Shown piece after piece: positions 3,168-59,504 of a stretch of 64,000 bases of DNA. A program made the position numbers and the translations under genes. This DNA is from a candidate division FCPU426 bacterium (GTDB taxonomy: Bacteria; Oederibacteriota; Muellerivitia; Muellerivitales; Muellerivitaceae). Positions within the stretch are counted from its first letter, which is position 1, and the number at the start of each line of letters is the position of its first letter. The stretch covers positions 32,001-96,000 of the forward strand of contig CAWCKJ010000003.1 in NCBI GenBank assembly GCA_963796105.1. Direction: 5' to 3'. The notes under the pieces were generated by a model that made no database searches, was not told the DNA's origin, and worked only from the letters and a program-made list of their open reading frames with translations.

Positions 3168-3170
3168 CGG

Positions 3171-3421
3171 AAAACCTGGTTCCCTAGATCGAAAACCCTG
3201 TTCATTAGGACTAGAAACCCGGTTCACTTTGCCAAAAACTCAGTTCACAAGAGCCGAAAACCCAGTTCACTTGGGGCAAAACCCAGTTCACTCCGGCGGG
3301 AAATCCAGTTTCACTTTGCCAAAAACTCAGTTCACAAGAGCCGAAAACCCAGTTCACCAGGTCGAAAACTCAGTTCACTTGGCCTAAAAACCCGGTTCAC
3401 TAGGCATAAAACTCAGTTCAC
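3171..3421. repeat. Tandem array of 12 units: 14-bp core AAAACYCRGTTCAC with alternating 7- and 8-bp variable spacers
   Basis: Cores start at 3171, 3192, 3214, 3235, 3257, 3278, 3300, 3322, 3344, 3365, 3387 and 3408. Segment 3228-3270 is duplicated at 3315-3357. Confidence 0.95.
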
Positions 3422-3688
3422 TCGAGCCGCTGGCCGGAGCCGGGATTACCGTTGGCCGGTGTCGGGATATCCGCCGCTTGGTGACGGTATTTTACTGATA
3501 TATAGTTTTATCGTTGTTATATTCGCAGTGGCGGGGGAAAGTGGCCTTTTTCCAATGCTTTCAGCTGGGTCTCTGTGTCCCTGTGGTGAAATGGGCCTAG
3601 TTTCTTGGTCTTGCCAAAAGCCCTCCTTCGATTTATCTTGCCCCTGGCTTAGTTGTGCTGGTTTTTATTCATTTTAAGGAGAAGCAAC

Positions 3689-14908: not shown

Positions 14909-15032
14909 TGGTGCCCGAGGCGGGACAATCGAACCACGCTGACGCGCTCGCAGGGGAAATATCCCCTGCGGATCCCCGTTGAACAGCCGTGAAAACTCCC
15001 GTTTTCCCGACCTTTCCCAGGGTTCTCGTCCC
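14909..15032 (-). repeat. tRNA-linked structured element downstream of tRNA-Leu, ending in an 18-bp copy of the tRNA 3' end
   Basis: 14909-14926 is identical to 15052-15069. The internal hairpins are homologous to those in the repeats after tRNA-Glu (51681-51927). Confidence 0.85.
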
Positions 15033-15051: not shown

Positions 15052-15134
15052 TGGTGCCCGAGGCGGGACTCGAACCCGCACGGTCTCCCATACGCACCTC
15101 AAGCGTACGTGTCTGCCAATTCCACCACTCGGGC
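15052..15134 (-). tRNA. tRNA-Leu (GAG)
   Basis: Minus strand reads GCCCGAG..TGGCAGAC..TACGC-TTGAGGT-GCGTA, long variable arm, GGTTCGAGTCC, CTCGGGC-ACCA. Confidence 0.95.
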
Positions 15135-23856: not shown

Positions 23857-25416
<1,560 letters not shown>

Positions 25417-25582
25417 TGGAGACCATGGAGAGGAACCCCTTTTTTGAGGGCTGCTCAATCGTAACTCCAAAGTGGATGCCCAAACGAGTTATGCACTATT
25501 TAGTTTTGAGGGGCCGATGCGGATCCGGTTCTTTACCAAATTGGGTGTTTTTATAACCTCAAGTCCTGCGCCAAACTGGGAT

Positions 25583-25659
<77 letters not shown>

Positions 25660-25694
25660 TTTTTTGGGGGGATTGCCTGGACGAAAACGGCGAA

Positions 25695-25770
25695 GGGGAT
25701 GTAGCTCAGTTGGGAGAGCACCTGCTTTGCAAGCAGGGGGTCGCCGGTTCGATCCCGGTCATCTCCACCA
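25695..25770 (+). tRNA. tRNA-Ala (TGC)
   Basis: GGGGATG...CCTGC-TTTGCAA-GCAGG...GGTTCGATCCC...CATCTCC-ACCA. Confidence 0.97.
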
Positions 25771-25976
25771 TTTTCGGGTGGAGTACCTGATAAAATTGCT
25801 TGAATCTTTTGCGTGGCGAATGATTCATGGAGCTTTTAGCTTTTTTGAAAGCCGCTTCTAGAATCAGCGGATTCGTTCCTTCGGGGACGGAAGTGTTCTT
25901 TGAAAAACGATAGAAATACTACTAATAGCTGAACCGAGTGCATAAAAGATTCTTATGCGGTGGCGAAGAAACATGT

Positions 25977-29014
<3,038 letters not shown>

Positions 29015-29156
29015 TATGTTTCATTTTCACCGCATTCCTAATCCACTTCGGTTCAAGAGTTAGTATTTCTATCGTTCAATCTAATTTTGGAAGACTGCGT
29101 AAAACAGTTAACTCCATTGTTTAAAAATTTTTTTTTGTTTTCCTGATAATCGTTGT

Positions 29157-29274
<118 letters not shown>

Positions 29275-51564: not shown

Positions 51565-51639
51565 GGCCCCATCGTCTAACGGTTAGGACGGATGGTTCTC
51601 AGCCATTAAATCGGGGTTCGATTCCCCGTGGGGCTACCA
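51565..51639 (+). tRNA. tRNA-Glu (CTC)
   Basis: GGCCCCA-TCGTCTAACGGTTAGGAC-GATGG-TTCTCAG-CCATT...CGGGGTTCGATTCCCCG-TGGGGCT-ACCA. Confidence 0.95.
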
Positions 51640-52086
51640 AAACATGAACCCAGGTTCGACTGAACCTGGGTTTTTTATTTGGCCCTACGGGGTGGAAAAG
51701 TCTGAAAATGGGAGTTTTCTGGTAGTTCGATGGGGTACACAGGGGGTTCATCCCCTGTGAGCGAAGCCCCGTGGTGGTTACCAAAACATGAACCCGGGTT
51801 CGACTGAACCTGGGTTTTTTATTTGGCCCTACGGGGTGGAAAAGTCTGAAAACGGGAGTTTTCAGGTAGTTCGATGGGGTACACAGGGGGTTCATCCCCT
51901 GTGAGCAAAGCCCCGTGATGGTTACCAAAACATGAGCCCGGGTTCATTCGAACCTGGGTTTTTTAATTTGGCTCCGAGGGGGAAGTGGGAATGGTTCGGG
52001 AAACGGAAGTTTCCCGGCCTTTCAAAGGGATAGCATAGGGAATTACAACCTTTAAGAACGATGCGAGGTACTGCTTCCCGGTGCGA
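51636..52086 (+). repeat. 144-bp tandem repeats downstream of tRNA-Glu (two near-identical units plus a diverged third)
   Basis: Units start with ACCAAAACATG at 51636, 51780 and 51924. Each has a terminator hairpin (AACCCRGGTTC..GAACCTGGGTTTTTT), a two-hairpin core and a tRNA-3'-like end. Confidence 0.93.
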
Positions 52087-55622: not shown

Positions 55623-56423
55623 ATGAAGATCGCCATATCCGGAAAAGGGGGAGCGGGCAAGTCCACGATCTCTGCCGCTTTGGCCCTTTTGATGGCACGC
55701 CGGGGCAGGAAAGTTCTCGCGGTGGACGCTGATCCCGCCGAGAGTCTCGCGGCCTACCTGGGATATTCTCAGGAGGAAAGGGCCAAATTTATTCCCGTCT
55801 CCCGTCAGATGAAACTCGTCGAGGAGCGAACCGGCGCCAAGGTCAAGCAATACGGCCAGGTTTTCCAATTGAACCCCAAAGTCGATGACATCGCGCCCCA
55901 ATTCGCTTCCCTTAAAAACGGGGTGGCGCTCCTAGTTCTCGGGGCGGTGGAGGGCGGGGGAAGCGGGTGCGCCTGCCCGGAAAGCACCCTTTTGAGGGCT
56001 CTCGTCACCGATTTAGTTCTCTATAAGGACGATTCGCTGGTCATGGACATGGAGGCGGGCGTGGAGCACCTGGGGCGTGGAACCGCCAAAGGCGTGGATG
56101 TGATGCTCGCGGTCGTGGAGCCCTCGCAAAGATCCGTGGAAACAGCCAAACGTGTGGAAAAACTCGCTGGCGAGATCGGCTTGAAGAACATTTTGTTTGT
56201 AGGCAATAAGATCGAGCGTGCAGAGGATGAGAAATTCATCTACGGCTGTTTTCGAAACCAAAAAGTCATTGGGATGATCCCTTTTTCAGACGTCATAAAG
56301 CGCTCAGAGCGCGAGGGAAGGGCGGCCCTGGAATCCTTGAACCCCGATATGGTCAATAGATTCGAGGGTTTGCTGGATTCTCTGGAGAAATATTCCTCTA
56401 ATCGAAAACACTACTCAGATTAG
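55623..56423 (+). CDS. cooC: CooC/AcsF nickel-insertion ATPase
   Basis: GKGGAGKST, VDADP, GGSGCACPE, DMEAGVEHLGRGT. Confidence 0.92.
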   Translation: MKIAISGKGGAGKSTISAALALLMARRGRKVLAVDADPAESLAAYLGYSQEERAKFIPVSRQMKLVEERTGAKVKQYGQVFQLNPKVDDIAPQFASLKNGVALLVLGAVEGGGSGCACPESTLLRALVTDLVLYKDDSLVMDMEAGVEHLGRGTAKGVDVMLAVVEPSQRSVETAKRVEKLAGEIGLKNILFVGNKIERAEDEKFIYGCFRNQKVIGMIPFSDVIKRSEREGRAALESLNPDMVNRFEGLLDSLEKYSSNRKHYSD

Positions 56424-56516
56424 TTTTATGACTGAAAACATTTACGGAAAACGGATAAAGAATGAAAATACAGTATGTCGGTTACCAATTGCTATCAAGC
56501 GGGATGAGGGGCGGCT

Positions 56517-57275
56517 GTGAGTAAGCTGATCGCGGTGGGGGGCAAAGGAGGAGTGGGCAAGACCACGATTTCAGCCCTCCTGACCCTGAGGCTGGCCGCT
56601 AGAGGTATGAAGCCGGTCCTGGCGGTGGACGCGGACCCAAATTGCTGTCTGGACGCGGCCCTGGGAGTGAAGGCGTTAAGCACCGTGGGGGGCGTTAGGG
56701 AAACGGCCAAACAGATCGCTGGCACGGGCATGGCGGTAGGGGTCTCCAAGCAAGACCTGCTGGAGCTCAAGATCGCCGAGTCGATCGTGGAAGCGGATGA
56801 TTTCGATTTGATCGCCATGGGCCGGCCCGAGGGGCCCGGCTGTTACTGCTACGCCAACAATGTCTTGAGGGCCACGCTGGAGAAGCTGGCCTCCAAGTAT
56901 CCGGTGGCCGTGCTGGACAACGAGGCGGGCCTGGAGAACTTGTCCCGGCGCATCGCCCCGAAGGTGGACGCGCTTGTCCTGGTGACCGACGCTTCGAGGG
57001 CCGGGCTGGAAACCGTCAAGCGACTCCACGCGCTATCGAAGGAGATGGGTATCATCTATGGCAAGCTCGGTTTGATCGTCAACCGGACGCGTCAAGGTGA
57101 ATTGTCCGAGGAGGCCAAGCAAACAGCCGCCTCGATCGGCGCTTTCAAGGCTATTGCCCTGCCTTCCGACCTGGAAGTGGCGGAATTGGCGGAAAAGGGA
57201 TTGAGCCTTAAGGAGTTGAAGGATAGTAATCCGCTAGTCAGCCGGATCGATGAACTGCTTTCAAGCTTAGGATAA
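56517..57275 (+). CDS. cooC: Second CooC/AcsF nickel-insertion ATPase
   Basis: GKGGVGKTT, VDADPN, GRPEGPGCYCYAN, DNEAGLENLSR. Confidence 0.92.
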   Translation: MSKLIAVGGKGGVGKTTISALLTLRLAARGMKPVLAVDADPNCCLDAALGVKALSTVGGVRETAKQIAGTGMAVGVSKQDLLELKIAESIVEADDFDLIAMGRPEGPGCYCYANNVLRATLEKLASKYPVAVLDNEAGLENLSRRIAPKVDALVLVTDASRAGLETVKRLHALSKEMGIIYGKLGLIVNRTRQGELSEEAKQTAASIGAFKAIALPSDLEVAELAEKGLSLKELKDSNPLVSRIDELLSSLG

Positions 57276-57554
57276 AACCAATCTCACCACGGAGGTACAG
57301 AGGCACAGCTGAAAATGAGATGGGATCTACAAAACTCGAAATAATGCCGGGTAAGGATGAGAATTTAATACTTAACTCAACTTTGGCAAATCGTGTCAAT
57401 TCCCCCTCTTTCAAAGGGGGAGACATAGTGTGCTCGGTAATTTTGCCAAAGACTGCTAGGTTATGTTGTTTGACTGTGTGTTTTTGTGAACTCTGTGTGC
57501 CGCCCCAGGCGGTCTGTGGTTAAAGCCGTTAAATTTATGGTTTAGGAGTGGGAA

Positions 57555-59504
57555 TTGGCCCCCAAAAAAACACCCGAGGAAAGAGTCTGGGATTTGGCGT
57601 CCGTGGAGACGCTCGCGAAAGCCGAGCGCGATGGGGTTGAGACTTGTTTCCTTCGAATGGACGCCCAGGGAACCGCCTGCAAATTCGGCACTGAGGGTCT
57701 CTGCTGCAGGGTTTGCCATATGGGACCCTGCCGGATCACGCCGAAATCCCCCCGTGGTGTCTGCGGGGCGGACGCTGATACCATCGTGGCCCGCAATTTT
57801 CTCCGGGAGGCCGCCGGGGGAACAGCCGCCCATTCCGACCATGGCCGCCATCTGGTACTGCTTTTAAAGAAGGCCGCGGAGGGCAAGGGAGGGGATTACG
57901 CCATCAAGGACGAGGAGGCGCTTCGCCGGAACGCCCGCCTCTGGAATGTCCCCGAGGAAGGCCGGGGAGTGCCGGAAGTCGCCCTGGATCTGGCCAACCG
58001 CTTCCTGTATGAGTTCGCCTCACAGGAAGATTCCTTGGCAACCCTCGCCTTGGCGCCGCCAGCCCAGCAATCTGCTTGGAAAAAACAGCATGTTTCGCCC
58101 TTGGGAATCGACCGGATGGTGGTAGAAGCCATGCACCGTTCCACCATGGGCGTGGACCATGATTACCGCCATCTTCTCTTATCTGCTTTCCAAGTCTCCC
58201 TGGCCGACGGCTGGGGAGGGTCGCGCATCGCCAGCGCAGTCACAGACATCCTTTTCGGCACTCCTATGCCCATCAAAGGCGAGGCCAACCTGGGAGTGCT
58301 CCGGACCGACACCGTGAACGTGGTGGTTCACGGACATGAACCGGCGCTTTCTGAAATACTGGCTATCGCCTCGCGCGACCCGCAGATTCTCGAGGCGGCC
58401 CGCCAAGCGGGCGCCAAGGGCGGGGTAACCCTGGCTGGAATCTGTTGCACGGCCAATGAGATCCTCATGCGCCACGGAATCCCCGTGGCTGGCAATTTCC
58501 TCCAACAGGAACTGGCGGTCGTGACGGGCGCGGTGGAGATGCTCCTGGTGGACGTGCAATGCTGTATGCCGAGCCTTCCTGATATCGCCGCTTCCTACCA
58601 TACGGAGGTGGTTTCCACATCCGATATCGCCAAGACGGTGGGAGTGGATCATTTTACTTTCGATGAGAATCACGCCATGGAGTCGGCCAAGTCGCTCCTA
58701 ATGCGGGCCATAGCCAACTTTAAGAAACGCGATCCGAACAAGCTTTCCATCCCCAAGGCCAAAAGCCCGCTGGTGGCTGGTTTTTCCGTGGAGGCTATTC
58801 GTTACATGCTGGGAGGCTCCTTCAGGGCTTCCTTCCGCCCCTTGAACGACGCCATCATTTCAGGGCGTATCCGGGGGATCGCGGGACTGGTGGGCTGCAA
58901 CAATCCCAGGACCAAGGTGGATTCTTACACGAACACCCTCACGAAAGAGCTTTTGAAGAACAACGTCCTGGTCATCAAGACCGGCTGCGCGGCCCTGGCT
59001 TCCGCCAAGGAGGGAATGCTCACTCCTGAGGCGGCCTTGGAGCACGCTGGCGCCGGTTTGAGGGAAGTCTGCGAGGCGGTCGGCATGCCGCCGGTCCTTC
59101 ATATGGGAAGCTGTGTGGATAACACCCGCATCCTGGAGGCCGCCACTGAGATAGTTCGGGAAGGCGGCTTGGGGGATGATTTGTCCCAAGTCCCGGCGGT
59201 GGGGGTGGCCCCTGAGTGGATGAGCGAAAAGGCCGTGGCCATCGGATGCTACTTCGTGGCTTCCGGTGTTGATGTTGTGCTGGGACATCCTTTCCACGTG
59301 GGTGGGTCGGAAAAAGTTGAGAAATTCCTGGGTGAGGGGGCCAACGAGGTTTTTGGGGCGTCGTTCCATGTCTGCACCGACCCCCACGAGGCCGCGAAGA
59401 AAATCCTGGAATTGTTGGAAGCTGACCGAGACAGGCTGGGCATCAACAAAAAACAGGAACGAAAAATGTACGACATGAAGGACCGGAGGGGACTCGTTGT
59501 CTAA
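57555..59504 (+). CDS. cooS: Anaerobic Ni,Fe carbon monoxide dehydrogenase catalytic subunit
   Basis: C.FG..GLCCR.CHMGPC, AHSDHGRH, HGHEP, GICCTANE, DVQC, GCNN, TGC, GSCVDN, SEKA. TTG start with AGGAG RBS. Confidence 0.95.
   Translation: MAPKKTPEERVWDLASVETLAKAERDGVETCFLRMDAQGTACKFGTEGLCCRVCHMGPCRITPKSPRGVCGADADTIVARNFLREAAGGTAAHSDHGRHLVLLLKKAAEGKGGDYAIKDEEALRRNARLWNVPEEGRGVPEVALDLANRFLYEFASQEDSLATLALAPPAQQSAWKKQHVSPLGIDRMVVEAMHRSTMGVDHDYRHLLLSAFQVSLADGWGGSRIASAVTDILFGTPMPIKGEANLGVLRTDTVNVVVHGHEPALSEILAIASRDPQILEAARQAGAKGGVTLAGICCTANEILMRHGIPVAGNFLQQELAVVTGAVEMLLVDVQCCMPSLPDIAASYHTEVVSTSDIAKTVGVDHFTFDENHAMESAKSLLMRAIANFKKRDPNKLSIPKAKSPLVAGFSVEAIRYMLGGSFRASFRPLNDAIISGRIRGIAGLVGCNNPRTKVDSYTNTLTKELLKNNVLVIKTGCAALASAKEGMLTPEAALEHAGAGLREVCEAVGMPPVLHMGSCVDNTRILEAATEIVREGGLGDDLSQVPAVGVAPEWMSEKAVAIGCYFVASGVDVVLGHPFHVGGSEKVEKFLGEGANEVFGASFHVCTDPHEAAKKILELLEADRDRLGINKKQERKMYDMKDRRGLVV

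Follow-up and report, generated by a model that had tools for sequence, protein, structure and literature searches.

A structured module with target-derived arms follows tRNA genes, terminators and protein genes across a bacterial family

In a stretch of 64,000 nucleotides from the genome of a candidate division FCPU426 bacterium (the window; G000:C3:32001-96000, where G000 is the source genome), a tRNA-Glu(CTC) gene is followed by three tandem units, the first two of which hold an inverted and a direct copy of the gene's own 3' end around a pair of hairpins. A related element follows a tRNA-Leu(GAG) gene on the other strand. What such units are, and how each came to carry pieces of the gene in front of it, is the question raised by this locus. 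A first, sequence-only reading had left two options: a small non-autonomous element that targets tRNA 3' ends and can amplify in tandem, or a family of tRNA-derived structured ncRNAs. The features, in window coordinates, are:

51565..51639, plus strand: tRNA-Glu(CTC), the target gene (ARAGORN, Rfam)
51646..51676, plus: spacer of unit 1, a terminator-like hairpin with a T run (sequence reading)
51680..51692, plus: unit 1, T-stem/acceptor 3' strand of the tRNA in an inverted, imperfect copy
51702..51721, plus: unit 1, hairpin A with a GGGA loop (sequence, covariation alignment)
51732..51759, plus: unit 1, GGGTA tag and hairpin B, where the core is most conserved
51760..51767, plus: unit 1, GCGAAGC DNA mini-hairpin motif
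51767..51783, plus: unit 1, direct copy of the tRNA 3' end to ACCA, with 2 changes
51784..51927, plus: unit 2, whole (tandem-repeat and pairwise comparison)
51790-51820, plus: unit 2, terminator
51824-51836, plus: unit 2, inverted arm
51846-51865, plus: unit 2, hairpin A
51876-51903, plus: unit 2, hairpin B
51911-51927, plus: unit 2, direct copy
51928..52086, plus: unit 3, diverged and decayed (core model 40 bits vs 73)
51934-51964, plus: unit 3, terminator
51969-51982, plus: unit 3, inverted arm
51997-52016, plus: unit 3, hairpin A
52027-52050, plus: unit 3, broken hairpin B
near 52065-52086, plus: unit 3, remnant of the direct copy
15052..15134, minus strand: tRNA-Leu(GAG), the second target gene (ARAGORN)
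15021..15032, minus: Leu element, inverted T-arm copy with a central TC-to-GA swap
14936..15007, minus: Leu element, core (sequence reading)
14991-15007, minus: Leu element, hairpin A
14949-14977, minus: Leu element, hairpin B
14936-14947, minus: Leu element, GCGTCAGC mini-hairpin
14909..14935, minus: Leu element, direct copy of the T-arm and acceptor strand to ACCA, with extra T-loop bases

The tandem repeat (51624-51972) has a period of 144 bp and extends over 2.4 copies at 94% matches. Identity between units 1 and 2 is 96.5%, so that unit 2 is likely a recent duplication, while unit 3 is 72–74% identical to these over 112 nt. The core that had been proposed as common to the two loci is indeed shared, the Leu element matching Glu unit 2 at 78% over 72 nt (E 2e-6), and hairpins A and B are present with the compensatory variants quoted for them. 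The direct copies behind tRNA-Glu span 17 nt with 2–3 changes, and that behind tRNA-Leu stays within 2 mismatches over 20 nt. Flanks derived from the host tRNA, both inverted and direct, can thus be upheld for Glu units 1 and 2 and for the Leu element, but not for unit 3, which has a decayed remnant and no copy ending in ACCA. Unit length is about 109–160 bp, with no gene inside. As had been observed, no integrase lies nearby: none of the genome's 36 integrase hits falls in the window. An Rfam search of the window at gathering thresholds gave rRNA and tRNA only. An independent DNA contig, possibly from the source sample, is identical to 51614-51764 (0 differences).

The core occurs family-wide. 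A covariance model built from 17 copies (13 of them from G000, where matching is by construction) was searched in this genome and its relatives and found further copies, matching 30 of the 31 genomes of the family. It gives 23 hits in G000, where an iterated profile gives 41 at E<0.01, against a best E of 0.12 for the reversed genome. Fourteen of the 16 strongest G000 hits lie behind tRNA or tmRNA ends, one of these after the tRNA-Gln fragment that a 9.4-kb island displaced; the other two are in the nrdJ terminator. The weaker model hits consist of a solitary hairpin B within palindromic repeats of other kinds. The model found no match in 50 sampled genomes of the phylum outside the family, a comparison run with stricter filters than the family search. 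A strict end-to-end pattern matched 8 of 99 phylum genomes, all within the family and one by chance, and so is too insensitive to exclude other cores elsewhere. The strict hairpin-B pattern returned 27 loci in GTDB, nearly all from uncultured MAGs and including one titled Ca. Firestonebacteria and one Oscillospiraceae, and 72 stretches in metagenomes. The core pattern had 0 hits in viral contigs; two hits there of a closing-stem pattern, both inside coding sequence, were judged to be chance.

Hairpin B by itself has more than 20 copies in G000, at about 25 intergenic sites, where it lies within repeats of two other palindromic families; some copies are in tandem and some have further hairpins inserted. 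These core-bearing palindromes are called REP-like here, a label that we presume to be apt. In Oscillospiraceae, a dispersed repeat (L102, L292-L294) has the same hairpin B beside a different palindrome.

The general layout runs from the target end through a short spacer, usually a terminator, to the inverted target copy, hairpin A, a linker, hairpin B with its GGGT(A) tag, a mini-hairpin of the GCGNAGC type and the direct copy. The spacer is 0–80 nt in the loci read, the two arms are about 85–95 nt apart, each locus has 1–3 scoring units, and all copies examined are on the sense strand of the preceding gene. The survey of family hits covered 80 regions fetched around hits, among the matches listed, with 53 further hits beyond these. 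Out of 187 distinct hits, 73 lie at most 110 nt from a complete tRNA/tmRNA 3' end on the same strand, and 19 gene types are represented. The direct copy fits its own tRNA better than that of any other amino acid in 59 of the 73, with 6 ties. For the inverted copy the figure is only 23, with 7 ties, owing to the similarity of T-arms to one another; its fit is still above the median in 69. In a direct/inverted-repeat test against random genome positions, the control reached 18% at the lax cut-off, and tandem arrays inflated the strict control.

Had the module been specific to tRNAs, as was first thought, hits would sit only at their 3' ends, and this is not the case. The other targets are the rplL and nrdJ terminators, a terminator after 5S rRNA, the 3' end of lpdA, the end of a second protein gene (L271), tRNA 5' ends (Ile/Met, Cys) and the REP-like palindromes. 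The units are a real family-wide module that is not confined to tRNAs, and what is new is the occurrence of the same core at terminators, tRNA 5' ends and protein-gene ends besides tRNA 3' ends. The modules at tRNA 5' ends (L072, L080, L103, L197, L230 and L286; Ile/Met half-genes and Cys) have a direct copy of the start of the tRNA sequence.

The covariation of the two hairpins holds in the 17-copy alignment, where 90% of cells pair, against 80.5% in shuffles, and double-sided changes number 38, against 14.3 (0 of 500 shuffles reach 38). When the partners are slid along the alignment, pairing falls to 37–67%. Eight copies were folded as DNA, and z-scores were -2.7 to -4.5 for five from the window and genome and one from a relative; RNA folding z-scores are likewise low. 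For hairpin B, 200 distinct copies were compared, and since these had been preselected at at least 6 of 8 pairs their pairing fraction is biased. Their wobble pairs (43 G-T vs 4 A-C) point to the top strand as the one that would fold. Terminal loops are GNA in 92, GNNA in 27 (8 of these GNRA), TTT/TTG in 18 and UUCG in 0, with 2 of the reverse-complement form and 42 outside the assigned classes. According to the accessible part of PMC13037366, the stability of the GCGNAGC/GCGNNAGC mini-hairpin is far greater in DNA than in RNA, and it is found at sites of single-strand priming.

The arms have a regular irregularity at their centre. Among 60 direct copies of the T-loop type, only four keep the host loop, the other 56 having a bulge or mismatch, and in 34 there is one extra base after position 58 (T in 23, C in 9). 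The TC-to-GA swap of the inverted arm is found in 20 of 21 cases where the host has G59 vs 1 of 26 with A59. With these extra bases and swaps, the predicted fold-back stem would nearly always contain a central bulge or mismatch. Loop type, wobble bias and mini-hairpin together favour, but do not prove, a function as single-stranded DNA.

A role in RNA would also draw on these structures. The units would then be read-through modules retained by the host, the direct copy being a processing signal and the hairpins binding proteins or stabilising 3' ends. A read-through role has been proposed for E. coli RtT and RrA/B/F, and TLRs of that species give processed transcripts that bind Hfq and CsrA in vitro, as described for three of them in the portion of PMC8144298 that was available. 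Every copy examined being on the sense strand of the gene it follows agrees with this, as do the low RNA folding z-scores, and the G-T bias of the top strand fits RNA equally. Against it, the loops are GNA triloops or TTT and not GNRA or UUCG, the copies sit behind terminators and are patchy in presence, and the amino-acid conservation in displaced copies of lpdA (see below) would be left unexplained. In two metatranscriptome runs (contigs only, and these may be from other organisms) coverage was of tRNA only. An RNA role of this kind is unlikely in our estimate; the ncRNA option of the sequence-only reading is weakened, because the loops are of the DNA type and no RNA evidence was obtained, although the transcription of the E. 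coli TLRs is in its favour.

The history of insertion can be followed best at lpdA, a dihydrolipoyl dehydrogenase-like gene found in all 31 genomes. Of the 30 loci returned, 27 have a complete 3' end, 8 filled and 19 empty, and both states occur within genera g3, g6 and g21. Between the working end and the downstream copy, differences at codon positions 1/2/3 number 9/7/46 (p 6e-11; 7 gap-free pairs, with G067 left out for its indels), a third-position share of 46/62. Two metagenome pairs differ by 0/0/8 and 0/1/4, and the second gene, L271, by 1/0/3, all synonymous. Such near-synonymous divergence is impossible for a neutral duplicate and indicates that the downstream copy was a working gene end. 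Judged by this codon pattern, the downstream lpdA copy is the former working end, displaced by an incoming one. In G080, the downstream copy has 5/42 differences from the end of its empty congener G003, and the working end 11/42. Third-position G+C of filled working ends is 4.0/13, vs an amino-acid-matched expectation of 9.1, while empty ends have 6.6 vs 8.2 (p 0.002, with kin that are not independent). AT-rich last 13 codons also occur in several empty lpdA genes (L128-L157), as in G006 (4/13 vs 10.8) and G005 (5 vs 10.3), and were possibly left by an earlier insertion and excision.

Other details of lpdA are less one-sided. The pairs in G061 and G009 have only 3–4/42 differences, like local duplicates, and the G067 pair is decayed. 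In 7 of the 8 filled loci, as judged by eye, the match of the inverted arm to the local lpdA takes in 2–4 bases that lie upstream of the direct repeat, so that local templating fits as well as import. Adenine-specific change of the DGR type (a label that we take to be appropriate) was rejected by eye, as the differences involve all four bases.

Orthologous tRNA loci were compared as well, and again both filled and empty sites were found. For tRNA-Glu(CTC), 3 of 13 loci are filled, one has the inverted arm only and nine are empty, the empty sites mostly having the same kind of terminator as the spacer of unit 1. Cores resemble those of the same target in other genera (similarity 0.68) more than those that stand at different targets within one genome (0.60, which is the background level). 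The nearest neighbour shares the target in 39 of 77 cases (expected 5.6%) and the genome in 2 of 77. Vertical descent with loss would also fit this clustering by target. For array polarity, 28 loci were picked as likely arrays, and in the 16 with at least two scoring units the first unit scores higher than the last in 13, with 2 reversed and 1 tie; arrays decay from the gene-proximal to the distal unit. The idea of a small non-autonomous element amplifying in tandem gains from the filled and empty sites, the polarised arrays and the displaced coding ends, and loses its restriction to tRNAs.

The same observations might be explained by larger integrative elements, either a single-stranded phage of the CTXphi type or an island whose attP folds back, that lost the gene-bearing body and left the attachment module as a scar. 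A restored gene with a displaced fragment is the hallmark of islands (in the part of PMC4383910 at hand), the AT-rich incoming lpdA ends suggest a mobile vehicle, and the cores form target-specific lineages. However, in the loci read, genes were never recognised between the target and the inverted arm and the short spacer is kept throughout, viral contigs have 0 core matches, and the 9.4-kb tRNA-Gln element is an integrase island of the ordinary kind, which pushed aside a module already in place. Scars of this kind seem quite unlikely. Least probable is that a REP-like hairpin B is pasted at gene ends by an HUH enzyme or by template switching in replication, with flanks copied locally at insertion: the solitary hairpin B copies in other G000 palindromes and in the Oscillospiraceae repeat, the match of the inverted arm to local host bases and the near-identical lpdA pairs of G061 and G009 would suit it, but all-synonymous divergence between copies is impossible by local duplication, cores do not cluster by genome, and there is no co-distribution with RAYT genes, a core hit lying near only 1 of 44 Y1 loci.

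Among known systems, the layout is that of the E. coli TLRs (RtT RNA, RF00391; RrA/B/F), of which there are 22 at ten loci, with an 18–19-bp 3' repeat and one to five copies per locus; they were first described in 1978 and had no known function, and no stated origin, as of 2021, by the account in the accessible part of PMC8144298. The mode of action of RtT is still called unknown in the available text of a bioRxiv mobilome paper (10.1101/2024.07.17.603846). Both kinds stand behind a gene (tRNA or 5S in E. coli) on its strand, end in a direct copy of its 3' end, form short tandem runs, and contain the T-arm or T-stem copied in inverse orientation, small hairpins with GNA loops and a motif of the GAGCGAAGCG type in terminal position. 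Of the E. coli repeats examined, those at tyrT combine an inverted T-arm, again with the TC-to-GA swap, with hairpins capped by GNA loops and a direct copy that runs to ACCA. Those at arg and lys consist of an inverted arm, which is short, then a conserved core whose last part is a GAGCGAAGCGAG-type motif, and finally a direct copy. Behind rrfB, the repeat has the arg/lys core and a direct copy too. Unlike the present units, which have 1–2 extra bases in the T-loop of the direct copy, the tyrT repeats have hairpins there. E. coli TLRs are confined to tRNA/rRNA operons, whereas the core studied here is also at lpdA, rplL, nrdJ, L271 and palindromes, and is polymorphic between relatives. The RtT model scores 133–137 bits on E. 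coli copies and has no hit at E<=1 on 10 G000 loci. With a shared layout and no RtT sequence match, the units are TLRs by layout and not sequence members; in that sense they are of the TLR kind, extended to non-tRNA targets. The view that no named family could be assigned is therefore right for Rfam, whose RtT model misses the copies, and wrong for the layout.

Rfam gave no membership at gathering or E-value thresholds. Its Clostridiales-2 family (RF02937) has a similar twin-hairpin layout and G-rich leaders, but two Ser(TGA) copies of G000 score 24–29 bits, far below the gathering score of 58.6 bits. REP/REPIN-RAYT systems have in common with the copies of hairpin B alone a short tag with a hairpin, intergenic dispersal and nesting in palindromes; they differ in that the units have target-derived flanks, G000 lacks a single-copy RAYT, and Y1 genes are not co-distributed. 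Islands integrated in tRNA or tmRNA genes (T-loop/junction sublocation) likewise restore the gene and displace its old 3' end, as at lpdA and L271, and show tandem arrays and 5'-fragment forms; the units are about 0.1 kb vs more than 2 kb, have no integrase, and add an inverted arm and a conserved hairpin core.

Two systems that recombine as folded single strands are also comparable. CTXphi attP(+), the type case of the integrative mobile elements that exploit Xer (IMEX), has two inverted target-like arms about 90 nt apart, foldable, with a mismatched centre and no recombinase of its own (available part of PMC4246890). Its target is dif, with dependence on XerC/XerD, in contrast to tRNA, terminators and gene ends, the units lack a phage body, and the unit stem has an extra base that the CTX stem lacks (from the part of PMC4792948 consulted). 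Integron attC sites and cassette arrays, including CALINs, would resemble the units in the primacy of structure over sequence, one folding strand and an extra-helical base (same source, same part), and also in that the newest unit adjoins the anchor. They differ in that the units carry no ORF cargo, are branched and not simple hairpins, and have arms that copy the host target; no IntI was found in the 31 genomes (E<=1e-60), where the control was silent too. The geometry of the predicted fold-back arms is that of CTXphi attP(+) and attC, and offers an analogy for the mechanism.

The explanation that we prefer, at a probability of roughly 55%, is that the units are target-specific, gene-less micro-integrative elements that recombine as folded single-stranded DNA by means of an enzyme acting in trans. 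It is supported by the anatomy, the covariation, the one-strand bias, the DNA-type loops, the filled and empty sites, the clustering by target, the decay of arrays and the coding signature of lpdA. The top strand would fold so that the inverted and direct arms form a bulged double-stranded mimic of the target, and the enzyme would recombine the folded unit, presumably an excised circular single-stranded intermediate, into the target. The crossover would lie on the 3' side of the T-loop bulge or, in lpdA, within the HPHP codons. The unit would supply a new gene end and terminator and push the old end downstream, so that the newest unit would be nearest the gene. Cells of one genus may pass units to each other, for example by transformation, and recombination between direct repeats may add or remove further copies, as perhaps with window units 1 and 2. 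It counts against this explanation that one enzyme would have to serve many unrelated targets.

The search for such an enzyme gave no candidate. Among 750 flanking ORFs from 211 loci, whose clusters were mostly judged by eye, an island integrase lying upstream at 9 loci was the one mobile-type gene recognised to recur; the NCBIfam scan covered 9 proteins. Y1/RAYT genes are absent from G061 and G054, and such genomes carry 7–8 modules at 98–99% completeness. The Y1 genes of G000 are IS200-type or TIR-bounded multicopy elements; the labels IS1182-type MITE and TIRYT used in this survey are our assumption. No reverse transcriptase was found in G000. A Y2 search gave no match, its control being silent as well, an IS110 search gave one copy and no candidate enzyme, and a GIY-YIG search three hits, none adjacent to units. 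Neither a circular unit nor strain-level polymorphism was seen. Genes between two modules in L195 were considered as cargo and rejected, being ordinary radical-SAM genes.

More tentatively, and with considerable doubt, all TLRs from E. coli to Patescibacteria might be one pan-bacterial class of gene-less single-stranded-DNA micro-integrons, self-addressed by a bulged fold-back copy of the target, moved by a host enzyme, through which related cells swap 3' ends of essential genes, and in principle retargetable by changing both arms. Neither the family, nor targets other than tRNAs, nor a mechanism at the DNA level was described in the openly readable literature that was searched. The family lineage provides polymorphic sites and protein-coding targets, in which the history of a TLR can be read from synonymous changes, and makes the nature of TLRs testable, by way of a circular single-stranded intermediate, dependence on strand and bulge, and a trans-acting enzyme. 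If one enzyme does serve tRNA, terminator and coding targets through copied arms, this would be a structure-guided, possibly programmable DNA insertion system, and also a so far unnoticed way for essential genes to have their 3' ends exchanged.

Repeats and islands of other kinds were noticed as well. In G000, a second kind of tRNA-trailing repeat follows Leu(CAG), Leu(CAA), Arg(ACG) and Arg(TCG) (G000:C2:4131, C3:832452, C4:1278679, C8:2454), and consists of a CCA end, an AT-rich hairpin, an inverted acceptor and a GTACC-tagged hairpin; a GTACC module of similar kind is inserted into hairpin B at C4:739 kb. At tRNA-Ser(CGA) (L046, G000:C4:439500-441200), two units with the same ends and a different core lie downstream of a broken tyrosine integrase. 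The island in tRNA-Gln(TTG) (L047, G000:C4:292871-302294) has two integrase-family genes and a large replication-type ORF. In the window itself, the units are flanked by an M16-type peptidase-like ORF and by membrane proteins without NCBIfam names. A tandem array of about 12 units (22/43-bp repeat) lies at 3170-3468, a complete rRNA operon with tRNA-Ile and tRNA-Ala in its spacer at 23857-29274, and, from translations read by eye, a CO dehydrogenase-like ORF with two CooC-like ATPase ORFs at 55623-59504.
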